A DNA stretch of 64,000 nt from Methanobacteriota archaeon (GTDB taxonomy: Archaea; Thermoplasmatota; E2; DHVEG-1): assembly GCA_963769885.1 (NCBI GenBank), contig CAVYNH010000006.1, positions 448,001 through 512,000 of the forward strand, written 5' to 3'. Positions 30,986 to 49,079 of the stretch are shown here, piece by piece; positions within the stretch are counted from its first letter, which is position 1; each line of letters begins with the position of its first letter. The notes beneath the pieces were generated by a model, which worked only from the letters and a program-made list of their open reading frames with translations, was not told where the DNA came from and did not search any database. The position numbers were made by a program, and so were the translations under genes.

Positions 30986-33022
30986 ATGAAGAAGGCATTT
31001 GCATATGTTATTGTGTCGATGTTGCTCCTCGGCGGACTGGGGACTGGCGTGCTGTCTATTGCGCCTCTTAGTGGAAAGAAAAACGACGATATCACTTCGA
31101 AGTCGTATCCCGATATCTCAGCGTATCGCTATGCAATCGCGATGCGGGGGGATCAAGGGATCATCGAGGGCTTCACCCTCGGCTCGAACCAACAGAGCCT
31201 GCCAGTCAAGAGTTATCCAATCGGGACTCTTATCTGGCAGTATACGATTACTGGCGGGTCTGATAACAGCCCGAAATCGATTGTCTCTCATCCAGACATC
31301 AACGGGGATCAGATCGATGACGTCATCATTGGCTCTGAGGATTACTACATCCGGTGTTTCAGCGGGGGCGCCATCGGGACCGGCCAGGTCCTCTGGGGTG
31401 TGACGATTACTTCTGGATCGGTTTACAACCAGGGTGACATCGCCATCATACCGGATGTGAATGGCGACGGGGTTGACGATGTTGTTGTCGGCGCTACTGG
31501 GGGCGCGCGGCTCATCCGGTGCCTTTCCGGCTCGAATGGGTTGACGATTTGGACCCATGACACCCATGAGTATGGTAGTGGCGGATGGGTTTATCAGGTG
31601 GACTGCACCTACGATTATAACGGTGACGGTGTTCGCGACGTGCTTGCATGCACTGGTGCTGATCCAAATCGTGTGTACTGTCTCAATGGTCTGACTGGGG
31701 TCTCGATCTGGGAGTATCCCCTGGGTGGACCCGGGTTTTCGGTCATAGGTGTCAGGGATTTCACTGGTGACGGCATCCCGGATGTTGTCGCCGGCTGCTC
31801 GAATGCTGCAGAGACGATCGGCTATGCCAAGGGGATCAATGGGGCAACGGGCGCCTTGGCCTGGTCCTTTACGACATCCTCCTCCGCCGGGTGGTCGGTG
31901 GGTCAGATGAGCGATGTCACGGGCGATGGCATCGATGACGTGGTCGTCGGGGACTTCTCGGGACACGTCTATGGATTGAACGCGGCGACGGGTGCTCAGA
32001 TTTGGGTCTGTAACGTGGGAAGCGGTGCGATCGTCACCCATGTCGTGCGGCTTAACGATGTGAACCTGAACGGCTATGATGATATCCTCGTCGGCCATAG
32101 TGGACAAATGACTGTGCAGTTGCTTGATGGGCTTGACGGCTCGCTGATCTGGGGGCATTCAACCGCGGATCAACCCTGGAATGTAGCTCGTCTCGCGGAC
32201 ATCAGCGGCGACGGGGTCGATGACGTCGTGGTAGGGACACTGTACACGAACAACTACGCCTATTTCCTCAGCGGCGTCGATGGGTCGGAGTTGACGGCGC
32301 CGATTTCGTACGGTCAGGCTCTTGATGCCATCGCTGCCATCCCGGATGTCGTCAATGACGGCTCCATGGAGATGATGGCTGGAGGGCGGGACGGCAAGGT
32401 CACCTGTTACTCCGGCGGGCTCAATGCCTCCCAAGGCCCGATGCACCTGACCGCGGATTTCATCGCAGACCCTAGGTCAGGGGAGACCCCGCTCCAGGTG
32501 CAGTTCAACGATACGTCGGTGGCAGAGAACACGACGATCACTTCCTGGAAGTGGGATTTCAACCATGATGGGATCATCGATTCCACAGTGCAGAACCCCT
32601 TATGGATATATACGGAGCCTGGGAACTATACGGTGTCTTTGACGGTCTCCAACGGGCATCTCACCGATACCATGACCAAGGAGGACTACATCACGGTTCT
32701 CCAGGGGAAAAACCCTATCGTGATTGGTAACGTCACGGGTGGTCTGATGAAGATACAGGCAGAGATCCACAACAACGGGACCCTTAATTTGAGTCAAGTC
32801 CAGTGGAGCTTCACGGTCAGTGGGGGCTTTGTCCTGCTTGGGAAGACGAAGGAAGACATGATCTTCATGCTGGCAGGCGGGCAGACTGAGGTAATCGTTG
32901 ATAGACCAGTGCTCGGCCTGGGAAAGGTCACTATCGAAGTCACTGCGAAAGCGCCAGACTACGAGAAAGCCACGAAGACCGTGGAGGGGGTCCTCCTTTT
33001 CTTCTTCGTCATCATCCGGTAG
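30986..33022 (+). CDS. Secreted FG-GAP/beta-propeller repeat + PKD protein with shared C-terminal domain
   Basis: Signal peptide; repeated DxNGDGxxDVxxG Ca-binding loops; PKD motif WKWDF..DG; C-terminal ~100-aa domain ending LLFFFVIIR. Confidence 0.85.
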   Translation: MKKAFAYVIVSMLLLGGLGTGVLSIAPLSGKKNDDITSKSYPDISAYRYAIAMRGDQGIIEGFTLGSNQQSLPVKSYPIGTLIWQYTITGGSDNSPKSIVSHPDINGDQIDDVIIGSEDYYIRCFSGGAIGTGQVLWGVTITSGSVYNQGDIAIIPDVNGDGVDDVVVGATGGARLIRCLSGSNGLTIWTHDTHEYGSGGWVYQVDCTYDYNGDGVRDVLACTGADPNRVYCLNGLTGVSIWEYPLGGPGFSVIGVRDFTGDGIPDVVAGCSNAAETIGYAKGINGATGALAWSFTTSSSAGWSVGQMSDVTGDGIDDVVVGDFSGHVYGLNAATGAQIWVCNVGSGAIVTHVVRLNDVNLNGYDDILVGHSGQMTVQLLDGLDGSLIWGHSTADQPWNVARLADISGDGVDDVVVGTLYTNNYAYFLSGVDGSELTAPISYGQALDAIAAIPDVVNDGSMEMMAGGRDGKVTCYSGGLNASQGPMHLTADFIADPRSGETPLQVQFNDTSVAENTTITSWKWDFNHDGIIDSTVQNPLWIYTEPGNYTVSLTVSNGHLTDTMTKEDYITVLQGKNPIVIGNVTGGLMKIQAEIHNNGTLNLSQVQWSFTVSGGFVLLGKTKEDMIFMLAGGQTEVIVDRPVLGLGKVTIEVTAKAPDYEKATKTVEGVLLFFFVIIR

Positions 33023-38618: not shown

Positions 38619-38700
38619 ACCTCCTTCTTTTTCTTTCACAAGAAACCTAAACTCTGGCGAAGGCTAATTAAGTCCGCAGACGAATAACCTGAAGGTTCAC

Positions 38701-38775
38701 GGGCCTGTAGCCTAGACTGGATAGGGCGACAGCCTCCTAAGCTGTAGGCCGCGGGTTCGAATCCCGCCAGGCCCG
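38701..38775 (+). tRNA. tRNA-Arg (anticodon CCT), intronless, CCA not encoded
   Basis: Acceptor stem GGGCCTG/CAGGCCC, anticodon arm ACAGC-CTCCTAA-GCTGT, T arm GCGGG-TTCGAAT-CCCGC. Confidence 0.97.
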
Positions 38776-38901
38776 TTTCTAGACCGAGCCTTTCCCACTT
38801 CGAAATTCCACAGGCTACGTGAAGTACCCAGCACAACGAAACAAAAAAAGAGGAGAAAGCCCCTCCCACGGAAAATCCCCCATGGGAGGGCTACGTATCT
38901 A

Positions 38902-41900
38902 TTATGACGACTCAGTCTGAACTGGATGCGCGCCGTTGTACAAATGCCACATGATCGCCTTCACGATGAAGTAGCCGATGATGACAGGATGCATCCGCCA
39001 CCGCCAGACCAACATGGAATCCACGGCGCTGTTCCCCGCCTTGTCCGTCGCCACAGCCTTCAAGACATGCTTCATCGGCTTCGGCTCCGACCAAAGATAC
39101 TGATACGGTGGCGTCGTCAACACAGCCTTACTGACGTTGTCGATGAAGATCTCCACATGGTCGACGCCGGACATGTTATCCGTCGCGTTCACAATCACCG
39201 TCAGGTTGTGGAAGAACAACGGCATCGTGAACGGGCACAGCATCCGGTCGAGCAAATAGACCGCGTCGATAGGCTGGTCGATATGGACCGTCGGCGCCCA
39301 CAAGTCCATCATCGAGAAATGCGCAGTGACGGACGCGTTGCCTGAGATGGTGATGGTTACCGGGTTCGTCGTCCCTGTCGCGTTCCCGCTCCAGTGGTCA
39401 AACGTCCAGTTCGCCGCCGGCTGGGCGGTGAGCTGCACCGTCTGTCCGTAGGTGTAGGTCGCCTGCTCCGGGTTCTTGACGACAGTCCCGGATCCGACGG
39501 TCGACACCGAGAGAATGTACTGGATTTGGGTGAAATACGCCGTCACGGCCAGGTTGCCGTTCACGGTGACCTCTACGGGGTTCACGGAGCCTGTTGCATC
39601 CCCGCCCCAGTAGTTGAAGCTCCAGCCCGGGCTCGGGATAGCAGTGAGCCGGACAACCTGCCCGTAGACGTACGTCGTCTGCTCAGGGTCTTTGGTGACT
39701 GTACCGGATCCGTTGACGGACACGGCGATTGTGTACTGATTCTGGGTGAAGTGTGCGGTCACGGCCTTATTCCCATTTATCGTGATGTTCACCGGGTTCG
39801 TCGTCCCCGTGACATTTCCACTCCAATGATTGAACGTCCACCCAGCGGCTGCAACGGCCGTCAACTGGACCGATTGCCCATAGGTATAAGTGCTCTGATT
39901 CGGCAGGCGCGTAATCGTCCCATTCCCGTTCACCGAGGTGGTCAGCGTGTACTGGTTCTGCGTGAAGTGCGCGGCGGCCGCCATGTTCCCGGTGACCGTG
40001 ATCTGCACGGGGTTGGCTGTACCGGTGGCGTTCCCGCTCCAGAAGCTGAAGGTCCAGCCGGGGTTCGGGATTGCGGTGAGGTTCACCGTCTGGCCATAGA
40101 TGTAGGTCGACTGGTTGGGGGTGCGGGTGACTGTCCCGGAACCGACGCTGGACACCGTGACCGTGTACTGGTTCTGCGTGAAGTGCGCGGTGACGGCTTT
40201 GTTACCCGTCATGGTGACGTTGACTGGGTTTGTGGTTCCTGTGGCGTTCCCGGTCCACATACCGAAGGACCAGCCGAGAGTCGGCTGCGCCGTGAGGCGG
40301 ACGACCTGCCCGTAGACGTACGTGGCTTGGCTCGGGTTCTTCGTGACCGTCCCGGAGCCTGCCAGGGTAACGCTGAGGGTGTACTGGTCCTGGGTGAAGT
40401 GTGCGGTGACGGCCGCGTTCGCGGTGATCGTGACATCAACCGTGAGGGCGTTCCCGCTCGCGTTCCCGCTCCAGTGATTGAAGGTCCAGCCCGCCTGGGG
40501 TTGAGCCGTGAGATGGACGATCTGTCCGTAGGTGTAGGTCGACTGGCTGGGGTTCTTAAGGATGCTGCCGTTGCCGTTCACGCTGAGGGTGAGGGTGTAC
40601 TGGTTTTGGGTGAAGTACCCGGTGACGGCCGCGTGGCCGGCCATGGTGAAGTTCACGGGGTTTGCGGTCCCGTTTGCTGCCCCCGCCCAGTGGTTGAAGG
40701 TCCAGCCGAGGTCTGCCATGGCCGTGAGATAGACCTTTTGCCCGTAGACGTAGGTGGTCTGCTGGGGGGAGATCTGGATCGTCCCTGATCCGTTCGTCGA
40801 TACGCTAAGCGTGTACTGGTCCTGGGTGAAGTGTGCGGTGGCCGAGCTGTTGTGGGTGATGGTGATGTTGGCGGTGGGTGATGGTCCCGTGGCATCTCCG
40901 GTCCAGTGATCGAAGCTCCATCCGAGGCTCGGCTGGGCGGTGATATGGACGACTTGGCTGTAGAGGTAGCTTGGATAGTCCGGGTTCTTGATCAGGCTGC
41001 CGTTCCCGATCGCCGTCAGCGCCAGGGTGTAGTGGAGCTGGGTGAAGTGTGCAGTGGCCGTCGTGTTGTCCGTGACCGTGATGTTGATGGGGTTCGTGGT
41101 CCCGGTGGCGTCGCCGGTCCAGTAGCTGAAGCTCCAGCCGGGTTGTGGCTGGGCGGTGAGGTGGATGACCTGGCCGTAGACGTAGGTGGCTAGGGTTGGC
41201 TCGTTGTCGATGCTGCCGTTGCCGATGGTGGCAAGCGAGAGGGTGTATTGGTTCTGAGTGAAGTAGGCGGTGGCCGCCTTGTTGCCGATGATCGTCACGT
41301 TCACAGAAGTGGTCGTGCCGGTGGCGTCGCCGGTCCAGTGGTCGAAGGTCCAGCCGGGTTGGGGCTGGGCGGCCAGTTGGACGGTCTGGTTGTAGGTGTA
41401 GTTGGCTTGGCTGGGGTTCTTATTGATGCTGCCGTTGCCGTTCGTGGTGAGGGTCAGGGTGTAGTGGTTCTGGGTGAAGGAGGCGGTGGCGGTCTTGTCG
41501 CCGTTCATGGTGAGGGAGGTGGTGGTGGTGTTGCCGGTGGCGTCGCCGGTCCAGTGGTCGAAGGTCCAGCCGGGGCTGGCGGTCGCGGTGAGGTTGACGA
41601 GTTGGCCGTAGACGTAGCTGGCGAGGTTGGGGGTCTTGGTGATGCTGCCGGAGCCGTTGCAGGTGAGGGTGAGGGTGCGGGCGGGGACGGTGACTTCGAT
41701 GAGGGTGCGTTGGACGGTGGTGCTGACGCCGAGGAGGACGGCGCAGATCTGTCCGGGGGCGGGGATGAAGCTGCCGTTGCCGCGGGCGGCGTTGACCAGG
41801 GCCCAGCCTTGGGTGTTGAGGCCGAGGTTGCCGCAGTCGAGGAGGTACCAGATGGCGTCTTGGACTTGTTGGTAGCTGGTGCCGACCCTATGGTTGAGGA

Positions 41901-42372
41901 CGTAGTTGATCTTGCTCCAGTTGGCGTGGTAGAGGTAGGTGGGGAGGGCGTTGTCGTAGGTGGAGTAGAGGGTGGCTTGGTAGTTTTGTTGGAGGTTGAT
42001 GTAGTGGAAGTAGTCGCCGCACCAGCCGTTGTACCAGTGGTTGATGACGTCGTAGCCGCCGGGGACGTTGGAGAGGGTGGTGTTGAGGTAGGAGAGGGTG
42101 GTGCCGAGGCGTAGATAGATGGTGACCTGGGAGGAGGGGAGTTTAATGACGAGGGGGTAGGTGGTGAGGGGCCGCGGGGTTTGCTGGTGTGGGGGCGCCG
42201 GGGTGAAGAGAGCGGTGAGGGGGCCTTGGGGCGGCTGTGGGTTGCCGAGCCCTTCGGCGAACTGGGCTTGGATGGTTGGGATCAGGGCGGTGCTGAGGAA
42301 AAGGAGACTTAGAATTACGACTATGGTTTTCGTGAGTGGGTGTTTTGACATACCGGACGGTCCTCCCTTCAT
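38902..42372 (-). CDS. Large secreted adhesin: thioester-domain-like N-terminus, 11 InlB B-like repeats, C-terminal Ig-like domain
   Basis: Signal peptide; GWCGD...VQDAIW...VQRTLIEV; 11 x 72-aa repeats YTL..GxG....P....YxYGQxVxLTA.P..GWxFxxWxG..F. Confidence 0.85.
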   Translation of the reverse strand: MKGGPSGMSKHPLTKTIVVILSLLFLSTALIPTIQAQFAEGLGNPQPPQGPLTALFTPAPPHQQTPRPLTTYPLVIKLPSSQVTIYLRLGTTLSYLNTTLSNVPGGYDVINHWYNGWCGDYFHYINLQQNYQATLYSTYDNALPTYLYHANWSKINYVLNHRVGTSYQQVQDAIWYLLDCGNLGLNTQGWALVNAARGNGSFIPAPGQICAVLLGVSTTVQRTLIEVTVPARTLTLTCNGSGSITKTPNLASYVYGQLVNLTATASPGWTFDHWTGDATGNTTTTSLTMNGDKTATASFTQNHYTLTLTTNGNGSINKNPSQANYTYNQTVQLAAQPQPGWTFDHWTGDATGTTTSVNVTIIGNKAATAYFTQNQYTLSLATIGNGSIDNEPTLATYVYGQVIHLTAQPQPGWSFSYWTGDATGTTNPINITVTDNTTATAHFTQLHYTLALTAIGNGSLIKNPDYPSYLYSQVVHITAQPSLGWSFDHWTGDATGPSPTANITITHNSSATAHFTQDQYTLSVSTNGSGTIQISPQQTTYVYGQKVYLTAMADLGWTFNHWAGAANGTANPVNFTMAGHAAVTGYFTQNQYTLTLSVNGNGSILKNPSQSTYTYGQIVHLTAQPQAGWTFNHWSGNASGNALTVDVTITANAAVTAHFTQDQYTLSVTLAGSGTVTKNPSQATYVYGQVVRLTAQPTLGWSFGMWTGNATGTTNPVNVTMTGNKAVTAHFTQNQYTVTVSSVGSGTVTRTPNQSTYIYGQTVNLTAIPNPGWTFSFWSGNATGTANPVQITVTGNMAAAAHFTQNQYTLTTSVNGNGTITRLPNQSTYTYGQSVQLTAVAAAGWTFNHWSGNVTGTTNPVNITINGNKAVTAHFTQNQYTIAVSVNGSGTVTKDPEQTTYVYGQVVRLTAIPSPGWSFNYWGGDATGSVNPVEVTVNGNLAVTAYFTQIQYILSVSTVGSGTVVKNPEQATYTYGQTVQLTAQPAANWTFDHWSGNATGTTNPVTITISGNASVTAHFSMMDLWAPTVHIDQPIDAVYLLDRMLCPFTMPLFFHNLTVIVNATDNMSGVDHVEIFIDNVSKAVLTTPPYQYLWSEPKPMKHVLKAVATDKAGNSAVDSMLVWRWRMHPVIIGYFIVKAIMWHLYNGAHPVQTESS
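39310..41682 (-). repeat. Eleven tandem 216-bp (72-aa) intragenic repeats
   Basis: Counted from the translation; each repeat contains GWxFxxWxG (NW in the last) and ends near FTQ. Confidence 0.9.
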
Positions 42373-42691: not shown

Positions 42692-42763
42692 CCTTTATAC
42701 AATAGAAACCTTTATAAATGGATTTTTTATTATTGTACTTTAATTATATTGGGGGAACAGAAA

Positions 42764-44029
42764 ATGAAACGTAAATTGATAACAATATTAATTTGTACGC
42801 TGATGTGCGCTACTGTAGCATCGGTAGCAGGGTCTATGAATAATAATGAGAGAGCTGTAAAAGCAATAGCAGACTCATCGTCTAATACTATCGTATGGTT
42901 ACAGCCTAGTGAAGTGCAAACAAAGACTGCCTCGTTATTCTGGCCACCAACATGGGTGCACTATGATGATGGTACCTCTGAGAACTCTCTAGGATTAACT
43001 GCTGGCGGGATTCTTACTGAGGCTATTAAATTAACACCTACGGAACTCACCGGCTTAAGCGGATCTTTTATTTGTATTAAGGTCATGCATGGATGTCCGC
43101 TCTATCCAGGTTGCCCGGCATCAGCCTACACCGCATGGTGTTGGGAAGGCGCTACTGCACCATCTAGTCCGTCTGCGGCTACAATTGTTAGCAGTGGTAC
43201 ATGCCCAGCAATAGACAACTATTATTACATCAACTTTACCGGTTTTCCATTCGATAACACTAAAACGTATTGGATCGGAGTAGATTGGACTCACGCTGCT
43301 GGTTCTTTTCCATGTGGCTTTGATACAGCCTCTTGTATTGTTGGTAAAAGCGATTGGCTTTGGTATTCCGGTGGTACATGGACGGAACTTACCACTATTG
43401 GTTACCCCGGAAACTGGAACCTTTGGGTGGGAGTAGGATCAGAAGGAAATCTGCCTCCAGTCACACCCGGTGCACCAGCCGGGCCGACAAGCGGTGTCAC
43501 AGGTGTATCGTACTCATTTACCGCAGCGACCTACGACCCTGACGGAGCCACTGTTTCTTATAAGTTCGATTATGGCGACGGTAGCTTTTCAGCATGGATT
43601 GGACCGTTAGCGAACAATGTTACCGCAACGGGATCGCATACCTATACTGCTGCTGGGAATTACAACGTCAAGGTGATAGCACAAGATAGCGCGGGCGCTA
43701 ACAGTAGCTGGTCTGCTGCACATGCCATCGCTATTACCCTGGCGCCAACCATCACGATCGCCATCAAGGGCGGCTTGGGCGTCACCGCGAATATCACCAA
43801 CAGTGGCGCAGCGGCCATCACCGCGAACTGGACGATCGACCTGAGCGGCGGCCTCATCATCCTCGGCAAGCACAAGGCAAACAGCCACAGCATCGCGGCC
43901 GGCGGCTCCTACAACGCCAAGGACTTCGTCCTCGGCTTCGGCTCGACCACGATCACCGCCACCGCCAACGGGGTCACGAAGACCGCGACCGCCAAGGTCA
44001 TCCTGATCTTCGTCACCGGAGTCGCCTAA
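42764..44029 (+). CDS. Secreted protein: low-GC Cys/Trp-rich domain + PKD + shared C-terminal domain
   Basis: MKRKLITILIC signal peptide; HYDDG; PKD motif FDYGDG; C-terminus nearly identical to that of the next gene. Confidence 0.85.
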   Translation: MKRKLITILICTLMCATVASVAGSMNNNERAVKAIADSSSNTIVWLQPSEVQTKTASLFWPPTWVHYDDGTSENSLGLTAGGILTEAIKLTPTELTGLSGSFICIKVMHGCPLYPGCPASAYTAWCWEGATAPSSPSAATIVSSGTCPAIDNYYYINFTGFPFDNTKTYWIGVDWTHAAGSFPCGFDTASCIVGKSDWLWYSGGTWTELTTIGYPGNWNLWVGVGSEGNLPPVTPGAPAGPTSGVTGVSYSFTAATYDPDGATVSYKFDYGDGSFSAWIGPLANNVTATGSHTYTAAGNYNVKVIAQDSAGANSSWSAAHAIAITLAPTITIAIKGGLGVTANITNSGAAAITANWTIDLSGGLIILGKHKANSHSIAAGGSYNAKDFVLGFGSTTITATANGVTKTATAKVILIFVTGVA

Positions 44030-44547: not shown

Positions 44548-45801
44548 ATGTTAGGCAAATCATTATTGAAAGCAGCTGTAGTCATCGCCATCGCTCTGGC
44601 CATGATCATGCCAGCCTCAGCAGCGATCACAAAAACCCGAACACCAACGACCACCCCCACGCCACACCCCGCCACCCGGGGAATCCTCCTCCAAGACGGC
44701 TTTGAAAGCTACGACGACTTCGCCATCGCCTTCCCGCCATGGACCAACATCGATACTGACGCACTACCGACCTACGGGATGACTGGATATACATGGACCA
44801 ACCAATTCTCACCGCAGGCGTACATGGTCTTCAACCCCGCAATGACGTCTCCCGCCATAACCCTCCCTGATTTACAGCCCCACGCCGGAGCCAAATTCGC
44901 CACCTGCTGGGCTGACGTCCCCTCCGGGTCTCAATACAATGACGACTGGCTCATCACCCAGCAACTCAGCGCCGGCACCTTCGGCTACGTCAGCTTCTAC
45001 GCCCGCTCCTACGTCTCAACCTACGGACTGGAACGGTTCGCCGTCGGCATCTCAACCACGAACACCCAACCCTCCAGCTTCACCATCATCTCACCCGGAA
45101 GCTACGTCGAAGCCCCCACAGCTTGGACCCTGTACAACTACTCGCTCTCCTCATACCACGGGAACATCTACGTCGGGTTCCACTGCGTCTCCCAGGACGC
45201 CTTCATCTTCATGCTCGATGATGTCACCGTCGCGGGAGAAGGCGGCGCAGACCTCATCCCACCCGTCACCACCTGCAACCTCACCGGAACCATCGAAGGA
45301 GACCACTATATCGGCGATGTCAAGGTGACCCTGTCGGCTACCGATGAAGGAGGATCCGGCGTCGCATTCACCATGGTCAAGGTCGACTCTGGGCTCTGGG
45401 GGAACTACACCGGGCCCTTCAACGTCACCGCTGACGGCGACCACACCGTCTACTACTACTCCGTTGACGGCGCCGGCAACCATGAGACCCCGAAGAGCAC
45501 CGACTTCAAGATCCAGCACCCGATCGTGATCGCCATCAAGGGCGGCCTCGGTGTCACCGCGACCATCACCAACAATGGCGCAGCGGCCATCACCGCGAAC
45601 TGGACGATCGACCTGAGCGGCGGCCTCATCATCCTCGGCAAGCACAAGGCAAACAGCCACAGCATCGCGGCCGGCGGCTCCTACAACGCCAAGGACTTCG
45701 TCCTCGGCTTCGGCTCGACCACGATCACCGCCACCGCCAACGGGGTCACGAAGACCGCGACCGGCAAGGTCATCCTGATCTTCGTCACCGGAGTCGCCTA
45801 A
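44548..45801 (+). CDS. Secreted choice-of-anchor J / cleaved-adhesin domain protein + Ig-like + shared C-terminal domain
   Basis: DGFESY, WTNIDTD, NDDWLIT, ERFAVGIST, YVGFHC, FMLDDV; PPVTT...YYSVDGAGNHE Ig domain; BRE/TATA at about 44481-44496; AGGAGG RBS. Confidence 0.85.
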   Translation: MLGKSLLKAAVVIAIALAMIMPASAAITKTRTPTTTPTPHPATRGILLQDGFESYDDFAIAFPPWTNIDTDALPTYGMTGYTWTNQFSPQAYMVFNPAMTSPAITLPDLQPHAGAKFATCWADVPSGSQYNDDWLITQQLSAGTFGYVSFYARSYVSTYGLERFAVGISTTNTQPSSFTIISPGSYVEAPTAWTLYNYSLSSYHGNIYVGFHCVSQDAFIFMLDDVTVAGEGGADLIPPVTTCNLTGTIEGDHYIGDVKVTLSATDEGGSGVAFTMVKVDSGLWGNYTGPFNVTADGDHTVYYYSVDGAGNHETPKSTDFKIQHPIVIAIKGGLGVTATITNNGAAAITANWTIDLSGGLIILGKHKANSHSIAAGGSYNAKDFVLGFGSTTITATANGVTKTATGKVILIFVTGVA

Positions 45802-45907: not shown

Positions 45908-47845
45908 ATGAATAAGCACGCTTTTACCACTGGAAGGCTACTCACCATCCTGGTACTATTGACCTGCGCCTCACTGCTCGCCTCGGCCGCCCCCCAAGTA
46001 CAACAGTCGCGGCCCCAGCCCGCAGGGCAACCCACCCTGCCCAGCCAATATGACCTTCGCAACGTCAACGGCACGAACTACGTCACCGGCATCCGCAACC
46101 AAGGGCAATACGGCACCTGCTGGACCCACGGCATCATGGCCTCCATGGAAGGCAACCTCCTTATAACCGGCAACTGGGCGGCCGCCGGGGAGACCGGCGA
46201 ACCGAACCTCGCCGAAGCCCACCTCGACTGGTGGAACGGATTCAACGACCAAAACAACGACGACGACCCGGGCGGACCCGGGATTGAGGTTCACGAAGGC
46301 GGCGACTACCGCGTCGGCACCGCGTACCTCACCAGAGGCGAAGGCGCCGTCCGCGAAATCGACGCCCCCTACTCCAATTTAGTAACCCAATGCGCTCGCA
46401 CGAGCCCCACATACCACTATTATATCCCCCACGACGTCGAATGGTACGTCGCCGGATCGAGCCTTAGCAACATCAACTCGATTAAACTCAGCCTCATATT
46501 GCACGGTGTTATCGGCACCTGCATCGACTACGCCAACTTCATGCAAAACTACATCCAGTACCAACCCCCGACCGACCCCAACCCACCTAACCATGCGGTC
46601 GCGATCGTCGGCTGGAACGACAACATGGTGACACAAGCCCCGCAAGGCCATGGGGCCTGGATCGCCAAGAACAGCTGGGGCAATTGGGGTCCCTATGGCG
46701 GGTACTTCTATATCTCTTACTACGACAAATGCTGCTGTCAAGACCCCCAGATGGGCGCTGTCTCGTTCCAGGGAGTCGATTTTATGAATCAGTCGACCAA
46801 GATTTACTACCATGATTATCATGGCTGGCGCGACACCTTCGCCGGCGCAACCGAGGTCTTTAACGCGTTTACCGCAACCCGGCAGGATGCGCTCCAGGCG
46901 GTCAGCTTCTTTACGGCGGCTGACAATGCTTCCTATACGGTAAAAATCTATAAGAGCTATGAGAGTGGGCAACTCCAAAACGAGGTCGCCTCAGAAAGCG
47001 GGATCTTTCCCTATCTTGGATTCCATACTGTGGATCTCAGCCATCCCATCGGACTCGCTGCAGGGTCGAACTTCTATGTCTACCTTTCCCTCTCCCCTGG
47101 CGGCATCCCCTTCGATCGCACCTCTGACGTGCCTGTGCTTCTTGGAGGCTCCTCTCGGACCGTTGTCCACTCGATCGCGCATCCTGGAGAAAGCTATTAC
47201 AAGAATGGCAACACATGGACTGATCTCTACGGCTACCACTTCTCAAACTCATCGTGGGATGGCACGGCGAACTTCTGTGTCAAAGCCATGACGAATAACG
47301 CTTCGGGAGACCTCTGGCCACCTGTGACGACCTGCTCGTTGAACGGTACCCTCCAGGGCGGTGTCTACCTCGGCGATGTACAAGTCAGCCTGCATGCCAC
47401 GGACAACCTGTCTGGCGTCGCACAGACCAATTACTCGCTCGACGGTGGCTCCTGGACAACCTACGTGGATTCATTCATCGTGGCTGAAAACGGACCCCAT
47501 GTCCTTCGGTTCTATTCGACGGATTATGCGGGGAACGTCGAACCTGTACAGACCGCCGAGTTCACGATTCAACCTTCGTTAACCATCACGGGTGGATTCG
47601 GCCTGAAAGTCACCGTCAAGAACGTCGGGTCTCTGAATTTGACAGATGTACCATGGAATGTCTCGATGAAGAAAGGATTGGTGTTGCTCGGTAGAAGTGG
47701 GCACATCAGCCTTGCGACAGGCGAGGAGACCACCGTCAGAAGCGTCGTCTTTGGATTGGGTCGTACGGACGTCACGTTCACGATCGGTCCTTGTGAAAAG
47801 ACCACAGCGGCGACCATCTTCCTCTTCTTCGTGATAACGGGGTAA
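45908..47845 (+). CDS. Secreted C1A (papain-family) peptidase + lectin-like + Ig-like + shared C-terminal domain
   Basis: LPSQYDLR, NQGQYGTCW, NHAVAIVGW, WIAKNSWG; IYYHDYHG..GESY..NFCVKA lectin-like domain. Confidence 0.9.
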   Translation: MNKHAFTTGRLLTILVLLTCASLLASAAPQVQQSRPQPAGQPTLPSQYDLRNVNGTNYVTGIRNQGQYGTCWTHGIMASMEGNLLITGNWAAAGETGEPNLAEAHLDWWNGFNDQNNDDDPGGPGIEVHEGGDYRVGTAYLTRGEGAVREIDAPYSNLVTQCARTSPTYHYYIPHDVEWYVAGSSLSNINSIKLSLILHGVIGTCIDYANFMQNYIQYQPPTDPNPPNHAVAIVGWNDNMVTQAPQGHGAWIAKNSWGNWGPYGGYFYISYYDKCCCQDPQMGAVSFQGVDFMNQSTKIYYHDYHGWRDTFAGATEVFNAFTATRQDALQAVSFFTAADNASYTVKIYKSYESGQLQNEVASESGIFPYLGFHTVDLSHPIGLAAGSNFYVYLSLSPGGIPFDRTSDVPVLLGGSSRTVVHSIAHPGESYYKNGNTWTDLYGYHFSNSSWDGTANFCVKAMTNNASGDLWPPVTTCSLNGTLQGGVYLGDVQVSLHATDNLSGVAQTNYSLDGGSWTTYVDSFIVAENGPHVLRFYSTDYAGNVEPVQTAEFTIQPSLTITGGFGLKVTVKNVGSLNLTDVPWNVSMKKGLVLLGRSGHISLATGEETTVRSVVFGLGRTDVTFTIGPCEKTTAATIFLFFVITG

Positions 47846-47966: not shown

Positions 47967-49079
47967 CTATGACACTGTCGTGGCTGTCCAGATGTCTATA
48001 GTGTCCTTTGAGAGGTTCGTGCCATCCGAGGCTAAGGCATCGAGGGCGTGGAGGCCTTTGCTGGCAGCTAGCGGCCAGTCGAAGGGTGGCTCGGTGTCGT
48101 TTTTCACCAAGGCTCCGTCAAGGTAGAAGGAGACGCTGGTCGCGTTGGTCGTAGTCACGGTGATGACGGCGTTTCCGAAGAATCGTGCGGCACCGCGTTC
48201 GATTGAGGGGAGTTTGCGGGCGATGGTGGGAAATCCGTGGCCGAAGAGGTAGGTCTTGAAGTTGAGGGGTGTGTCGAAGCTGATGGTGGGGGCGTTGGGT
48301 CTGAGGTTGCCGTAGACGTCGCCGAGGTACATGATGCCGGTCCCTGGTCCGTACCAGGAGGAGAAGATGTTGGCGGAGTAGCTGAGTCGGAACCAGCCGT
48401 CCTCGCCCCAGCGGGTCCCCCAGCTGTTTTTAAGGATCCAGCAGGAGTTGGCGTCGTCGTAGCCGACGAGGGCGACGACGTGGCCGCCGACGATTTGTCC
48501 AGAGCCGGGGGTGTAGACGCCGTGGCGGTAGTTGAAGAAGTCGTTGGGGAAGTGGATGCAGACGACGAGGGGGCCGTGGGTGATGAGGTTTTGTTTGATG
48601 GTGTCGATATCGTGGGCGATCCAGCCCCAGTCCGTGATTTTGACGGTGCGGTTCTGCCAGCCTGGGAGGCTTTGGTAGGTGAAGTCGGCGGGGCGGTGAG
48701 GGTCGGGGAAGCAGCCTTCGTCGGGGACGCCGTAGGTTTTGAGGTAGTTGGCGGCGTCTTGGAGGTTGACGTAGCCTTGGGCGATGGTGCCGCCGGCGTA
48801 GAAGTAGATGTGGGCTTCGGAGAGGTCGGAGATGGTCTGTGCGTGGAGGGCGTAGCGGACTTTGGTTTCGAGGGCGGCGCAGATGGCGTAGCCTTCGCAG
48901 GTGGGGGCGGGGGATTGGTCTTTGATGGGGGTGGTGTAGTCGGTGCCGTTGATGTCTCTCCAAGAGAACGAGGAGGGGAATGTGGGGGTTGCAGTGCCGG
49001 TGGGGGTGGGGAGGATAGGAATGGTGGTGAGGAGGACGAGGGCGATGGCGGTGGTGAGGAGGGTGCGAGGGGCGGACAT
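47967..49079 (-). CDS. Secreted C1A peptidase with C-terminal Ig-like domain
   Basis: FPSSFSWR, TPIKDQSPAPTC, LSEAH, GGHVVALVGY, WILKNSWG. Confidence 0.88.
   Translation of the reverse strand: MSAPRTLLTTAIALVLLTTIPILPTPTGTATPTFPSSFSWRDINGTDYTTPIKDQSPAPTCEGYAICAALETKVRYALHAQTISDLSEAHIYFYAGGTIAQGYVNLQDAANYLKTYGVPDEGCFPDPHRPADFTYQSLPGWQNRTVKITDWGWIAHDIDTIKQNLITHGPLVVCIHFPNDFFNYRHGVYTPGSGQIVGGHVVALVGYDDANSCWILKNSWGTRWGEDGWFRLSYSANIFSSWYGPGTGIMYLGDVYGNLRPNAPTISFDTPLNFKTYLFGHGFPTIARKLPSIERGAARFFGNAVITVTTTNATSVSFYLDGALVKNDTEPPFDWPLAASKGLHALDALASDGTNLSKDTIDIWTATTVS

Follow-up and report, generated by a model that had tools for sequence, protein, structure and literature searches.

Can an archaeon attach itself covalently to its surroundings with the kind of internal thioester known from the surface adhesins of Gram-positive bacteria? 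This question is raised by one gene in a 64,000-nucleotide stretch of DNA (hereafter the window; positions 448,001 to 512,000 of the forward strand of contig CAVYNH010000006.1, GenBank assembly GCA_963769885.1) from a Methanobacteriota archaeon (GTDB lineage Archaea; Thermoplasmatota; E2; DHVEG-1). A preliminary description, made from the sequence without database searches, had proposed that the gene encodes a thioester-domain-like adhesin with a reactive Cys-Gln pair at the tip of a repeat stalk. The papers that we found, as late as 2026, treat thioester domains (TEDs) as adhesin modules of Gram-positive bacteria (Firmicutes, Actinobacteria) and discuss them in terms of host-pathogen binding, and full-text literature searches up to 2026 found no paper placing bacterial-type TEDs in archaea or diderm bacteria. 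Our computational analysis supports a TED-like adhesin in an archaeon by its fold, its topology, the positions of its motifs, their conservation, the head-stalk-anchor layout of the protein and the archaeal nature of the genome. We consider it likely that the gene product is a secreted, C-terminally anchored fibrillar surface protein whose head forms a Cys118-Gln221 thioester by itself and passes it on to an incoming amine as an isopeptide link.

The core of the known TEDs consists of a barrel of six strands together with a bundle of three helices, with the Cys on strand C, the Gln on the last strand and a TQxxPhiW motif on helix alpha2 (Miller et al. 2018, PMC6194298). The bonded Gln is the one of the C-terminal strand and not the one of the helix (Walden et al. 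2015, PMC4450167), and no residues other than this Cys and this Gln are universally conserved in these domains (Walden 2015, PMC4450167; Miller 2018, PMC6194298). The motifs listed in the preliminary description (GWCGD, INYVLN, VQDAIW and VQRTLIEV) are all present in the translation of the gene (38902-42372, minus strand), where they appear as GWC118GD at residues 116-120, INYVLNH at 156-162, VQ171DAIW at 170-175 and VQ221RTLIEV at 220-227, and their conservation throughout the family excludes chance. The codons proposed for the thioester Cys and Gln indeed read TGC and CAA on the minus strand (Table 1), and the placement of the reactive Gln on the C-terminal strand, not on the TQxAIW helix, agrees with Walden et al. 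2015 (PMC4450167).

An exhaustive phmmer search of 1.84 billion cluster representatives (50% identity clusters) returned 984 related proteins at E<=1e-3, with 504 at E<=1e-10, and the best 150 proteins of this search supplied the 158 domain copies in which conservation was counted. Cys118 is kept in 157 of the 158 copies and the preceding Trp117 in 155, giving a family consensus of W-C-V-D, while Gln221 is kept in 154. The helix motif is nearly as constant (Gln171 149/158, Ala 146/158, Ile 140/158, Trp175 150/158), the Thr of TQxxPhiW being replaced by Val in the window protein. Two further residues are close to invariant, namely Asn160 (158/158) and Glu226 (151/158).

The head was modeled with AlphaFold2 using a 58-row alignment (A1) as input, in which residues are counted as in the family member P0002 (Cys56 = Cys118, Gln159 = Gln221, Q109..W113 = Gln171..Trp175). 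The model has a predicted local distance difference test score (pLDDT) of 92 and a predicted template modeling score of 0.87, and its secondary structure runs b-b-b-b-a-a-a-b-b, six strands and three helices in all (strands 21-27, 34-39, 51-56 and 68-75; helices 90-98, 105-115 and 125-137; strands 147-153 and 161-166). These elements form a six-stranded barrel with a bundle of three helices, i.e., the core TED fold, and fold searches with the model gave matches exclusively to TEDs. The motifs fall where they do in the TED superfamily, with WC118GD at the end of the third strand, VQ171DAIW on the second helix and VQ221RTL opening the last strand. AlphaFold2 models no cross-links, and the equivalence of Cys and Gln was derived from the ranges of each structural alignment, as offsets from its first and last residues. 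In the alignment with CpTIE (5a0g), the Cys offset is 36 in the model and 37 in the known structure (Cys138), and the Gln offset is 8 in both (Gln267); the Gln offsets likewise coincide with those of SfbI (7 vs 7, Gln261) and Cpa (10 vs 10, Gln575). The model Cys thus comes within 1-3 residues of the bonded Cys in CpTIE (Cys138), SfbI (Cys109) and Cpa (Cys426).

The known TEDs are divided by their insertions, class I carrying an alpha0 helix of 15-20 residues between strand D and alpha1, and class II a beta-sandwich of ~75 residues between alpha3 and strand P that produces a slipknot (PMC6194298). In the model, the 14 residues between the strand at 68-75 and the helix at 90-98 hold only a 3-residue turn, and a 9-residue linker joins the helix at 125-137 to the strand at 147-153. 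Since both class-defining insertions are absent, the head corresponds to a minimal TED core. The predicted structure therefore supports that the head is a minimal TED, which shares fold-level homology with the TEDs known from Cpa, SfbI, CpTIE and other Gram-positive adhesins.

Several results weigh against this assignment, the first of them being the outcome of the sequence-model searches. In the Pfam and NCBIfam scans, PF08341 (TED), PF20610 (TED_2), TIGR03934 (TQXA_dom) and NF012162 did not match the protein or its head at E<=1, leaving the window protein outside the curated cut-offs; the search with TED and TQXA hidden Markov models (HMMs) that the preliminary description had suggested was thus negative for this protein and gave matches to its relatives only below or near threshold. 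These matches of relatives, on the other hand, are weak but consistent signals from three independent thioester models and speak for the assignment. PF08341 was found in 7/58 and 3/86 relatives (best E 5.7e-5, below or near threshold), and TIGR03934 and NF012162 (thioester-forming surface protein) gave similarly sub-threshold or near-threshold matches in 6/58 and 4/58, respectively. In the relative P0012, the Pfam TED match covers the sequence from the WC motif to the end of QSAIW. The negative outcome for the window protein bears on these sequence models alone and does not exclude it from the structural superfamily, whose proven TEDs share as little as 12% identity (PMC4450167).

Other comparisons were also unfavorable. 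Searches of the PDB sequences with phmmer and with the family profile gave only chance matches to viral proteins. The hhalign comparison of the family alignment with a 13-sequence class II TED alignment, assembled from relatives of pLS20 TIE, yielded a non-significant probability of 1.3%, with GWCvD paired with vYCiD, and that with pLS20 TIE alone a probability of 0.1%. The predicted Cys-Gln contact is deduced from alignment ranges, the smallest solved TED exceeds the head in length by ~20 residues, and a Trp precedes the Cys where canonical TEDs have Tyr, Phe or Leu. In addition, the near-invariant Asn160 and Glu226 have no known role in canonical TEDs, and the chemistry could differ in detail. 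With the single domain as query, a word-based homolog search gave no matches, and with the alignment it gave 7 proteins, unnamed or labeled 'hypothetical'. In favor of the assignment, the head in a language-model atlas adjoins clusters in which 11-13% of the members carry PF08341.

Some of these observations would suit a TED fold without a reactive thioester, i.e., an ordinary non-covalent binding module in which Cys and Gln are kept for packing or hydrogen bonding. The similarity to proven TEDs lies under every curated threshold, and the additional invariant residues of the family hint at a somewhat different active-site environment. However, the equivalents of the universally conserved TED Cys and Gln are 97-99% kept across very divergent bacterial and archaeal sequences, and a buried Cys of an extracellular protein would rarely be kept so tightly for structural reasons alone, making this explanation unlikely.

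The remainder of the protein has the layout of a surface adhesin (Table 1), and its signal peptide, 11 repeats, Big_7 domain and tail together give the secreted, anchored display on a repeat stalk that characterizes the TED superfamily. The highest hydrophobicity of the 1156-aa protein is found in 19-aa windows beginning at residues 12-19, in the region of the signal peptide, and close homologs share with the window protein a signal-peptide ending of the type ...(A/S)Q|(F/L). The start of the AlphaFold2 model (P0002 residues 1-7), corresponding to the linker, is disordered, with pLDDT <50. The preliminary description had located the head at 41690-42130, and the model boundaries are slightly wider on both sides. 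Its count of 11 stalk repeats is borne out by 11 stretches of Flg_new_2 (PF18998, E 5.8e-138; also TIGR02543, E 4.9e-23) directly after the head. The closest homologs P0004, P0006 and P0008 also have (K/R)WRxHP followed by a hydrophobic stretch of 12-16 residues right after Big_7, and this C-terminal ending possibly anchors the protein in the membrane or acts as an archaeal sorting signal not described before. An ortholog in a genome of the same genus is an open frame of 1137 aa.

Table 1. Positions in the window of the adhesin gene, its parts and candidate thioester residues, and of the adjacent tRNA gene.
Feature	Position	Strand	Remarks
Adhesin gene	38902..42372	-	1156 aa, intact open reading frame; predicted surface fibrillar adhesin
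Signal peptide, aa 1-37	42262..42372	-	predicted from the sequence; cleavage probably after AQA-Q
Pro/Gln-rich linker, aa 38-75	42148..42261	-	read from the translation
Compact TED-like head, aa 76-231	41680..42147	-	~155 aa; boundaries from the model
Cys118 codon TGC	42019..42021	-	candidate thioester Cys; WCGD motif, end of third strand
Q171-D-A-I-W175	41848..41862	-	equivalent of TQxxPhiW motif, helix 2 (model helix 105-115)
Gln221 codon CAA	41710..41712	-	candidate thioester Gln; VQRTLIE, start of last strand
Glu226 codon	41695..41697	-	family-specific near-invariant residue, five positions past Gln221
Stalk, aa 233-1020	39313..41676	-	11 tandem Flg_new_2 / InlB B-type repeats; Pfam, NCBIfam
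Ig-like domain (Big_7 / OmpL47-type), aa 1056-1117	39022..39207	-	PF17957 E 7.4e-7; NF047446 E 9.7e-6
WRWRMHP and hydrophobic tail, aa 1123-1145	38938..39006	-	probable membrane anchor or sorting signal
tRNA-Arg (CCT)	38700..38776	+	opposite strand; follows just downstream of the 3' end of the adhesin gene

From the motifs, their conservation, the predicted fold and topology and this surface architecture, we infer a possible course of bond formation, reaction and targeting. Once the protein has been exported and has folded, Cys118 on strand C and Gln221 on the last strand would react spontaneously through their side chains with the loss of ammonia, and the resulting thioester would be buried where the six-stranded barrel meets the three-helix bundle, with Gln171 and Trp175 of helix 2 packed onto the backbone of the Cys, as they are in known TEDs. 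The 11 InlB-B-type repeats would place the head tens of nanometres off the cell, where a suitable nucleophile would enter the pocket and attack the thioester; the likeliest candidate is the amine of a lysine in a protein that belongs to a particle or to another cell. An isopeptide bond would then join the target and Gln221, as is the case for SfbI and Cpa, and the archaeon would be covalently tethered to the target.

Alternatively, the thioester might form without being aimed outward, serving instead to join the cell's own envelope or fibre subunits, to act as a mechanical or pH-sensitive lock, or to capture small amines or sugar hydroxyls. The genome contains a paralog in which the same domain is joined to a jelly-roll domain behind a SipW-type-like signal peptide, beside a head-less copy of the jelly-roll domain, an arrangement that could indicate a role in fibre assembly. 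Spermidine reacts with the TED of Cpa (cited in PMC4450167), and TEDs bind reversibly, in a manner tuned by pH. On the other hand, the head of the window protein stands at the distal end of the 11-repeat stalk, opposite the anchor, in the geometry of an outward-facing adhesin (Walden 2015, PMC4450167), and the sequence gives no hint of a self target, so that we regard such a use as quite improbable.

The genome is archaeal. The 785-kb contig of the window also bears a full-length archaeal 16S rRNA (1510 bits), for which the archaeal model wins the clan competition, and the closest named homolog of the adhesin comes from a metagenome-assembled genome (MAG) of the Thermoplasmatota. The domain occurs in 27/301 genomes (300 sampled from the same phylum and the window's own), in up to 5 copies per genome, and in 15/35 of those sampled from the window's own family. 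A scan by patterns, covering one genome for each GTDB species, gave 56 loci, mostly in Thermoplasmatota and Bathyarchaeia and otherwise in Baldrarchaeota, Verrucomicrobiota, Acidobacteriota and Planctomycetota, a list of taxa that is biased by the two peptide patterns used. Both motifs are kept in 55 of the 57 domain copies from named genomes, and the named relatives are MAGs from sediment, peat and hot springs.

These 57 copies, cut out without the matches that covered <110 positions of the domain profile, were placed in a quick, unrooted maximum-likelihood tree with support from the Shimodaira-Hasegawa-like approximate likelihood ratio test (SH-aLRT). The copies group by lineage, including one Bathyarchaeia group in which 13 of the 14 rows are so labeled (support 97). 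The window head belongs to an 11-row group (SH-aLRT 97) whose other 10 rows are 6 Thermoplasmatota and 4 archaeal MAGs with the older labels Euryarchaeota/Methanobacteriota, and its nearest row is a lake-sediment MAG of the same genus with 65% identity. Because the tree clusters by lineage and places the window head among archaeal rows, it argues for a long residence of the head in archaea rather than contamination or recent transfer. The last explanation considered, that an unrelated domain resembles the motifs by chance or that bacterial contamination entered the assembly, might draw on the missing curated HMM match to the window protein and is scarcely conceivable, chance being rejected by a fold match exclusive to TEDs and contamination by the 16S rRNA on the same contig, the same-family genomes and the archaeal tree group.

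The relatives carry stalk domains typical of fibrillar adhesins (PKD, SdrD_B, Flg_new_2, DUF11, SpaA, fn3 and Big_7), and their sorting signals span several envelope types, i.e., PEP-CTERM, the tail of the type IX secretion system, dockerin and archaeal PEF/PEFG-CTERM. Some have tandem TED-like heads, with 5 copies in P0037, 3 in P0003 and 2 each in P0005, P0012-P0014, P0028, P0030 and P0046; several heads per protein are unusual for canonical TEDs, Cpa having two. Where the source names members of the family, they are annotated as 'hypothetical' or 'Ig-like domain-containing', which exposes an annotation gap for these TED-like proteins.

The adhesin gene lies within a cluster of genes for secreted proteins (30986-33022, 42749-44029, 44548-45801, 45908-47845 and 47967-49079), comprising an FG-GAP/PKD propeller, a PKD protein, two papain-family (C1) peptidases, one of them with a lectin-like domain, and an unassigned 417-aa protein. 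The secreted peptidases fit an organism that works on extracellular protein, and they may be linked to the target of the adhesin. The PKD protein and the 417-aa protein have near-identical C-terminal tails of ~60 aa (...VILIFVTGVA). Elsewhere in the genome, downstream of the paralog pair, the gene at L002:3039-3560 (+) has a gingipain-type Propeptide_C25 at its start (E 1.3e-5), representing another secreted cysteine peptidase beside a TED gene.

Given the predicted fold of the head and its conserved residues, some uncultured archaea probably bond covalently to their targets. We lean, with some reserve, towards a broader view in which minimal TEDs are not a Gram-positive speciality and form a module for covalent adhesion that is widespread and long resident in uncultured archaea (Thermoplasmatota, Bathyarchaeia, Baldrarchaeota) and widespread in diderm bacteria too, with the archaea using a Cys-Gln 'harpoon' on long stalks, possibly at fibre tips, for their covalent fixation to proteinaceous particles or partner cells. 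If so, covalent adhesion chemistry would extend to a second domain of life and to non-host settings, a minimal TED core would be defined that is useful for protein-ligation tools, and there would be a way to test how uncultured archaea that degrade particles fasten themselves to the substrate.

Covalent attachment to a target through a Cys-Gln thioester is also known from complement C3/C4 and alpha-2-macroglobulin, in which the thioester is carried by an alpha-alpha toroid with a CGEQ motif. The fold of these thioester domains is unrelated to that of the window head, and none of them appeared in the fold searches. In comparison with the class II TEDs BaTIE (6FWV), SaTIE (6FX6), EfmTIE86 (6FWY) and TIE-pLS20, the window head lacks the beta-sandwich insertion of ~75 residues and the slipknot, and the profile-profile similarity of its family to this class is negligible.

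The closest likeness is to the class I TEDs, i.e., CpTIE-TED (5A0G/5A0D), Cpa (2XI9, 4C0Z), SfbI-TED (5A0L), FNE (5DCQ) and PnTIE (5A0N). Unlike these, the window head has no alpha0 between strand D and helix 1 and spans only ~155 aa, reads W-C-x-D instead of [YFL]C, adds the near-invariant Asn160 and Glu226, shares 10-19% sequence identity with class I and is missed by the curated HMMs; moreover, its stalk consists of InlB-B-type repeats instead of isopeptide or ester domains, the protein is without an LPXTG/sortase signal, and its host is an archaeon. In common with them, it has the core of barrel and helix bundle with the Cys at the end of strand C, the last strand carrying the Gln and helix 2 the QxxIW motif, a short linker from helix 3 to the following strand (~9 residues in the window head), and a position at the N-terminal tip of a repeat stalk in a C-terminally anchored protein.

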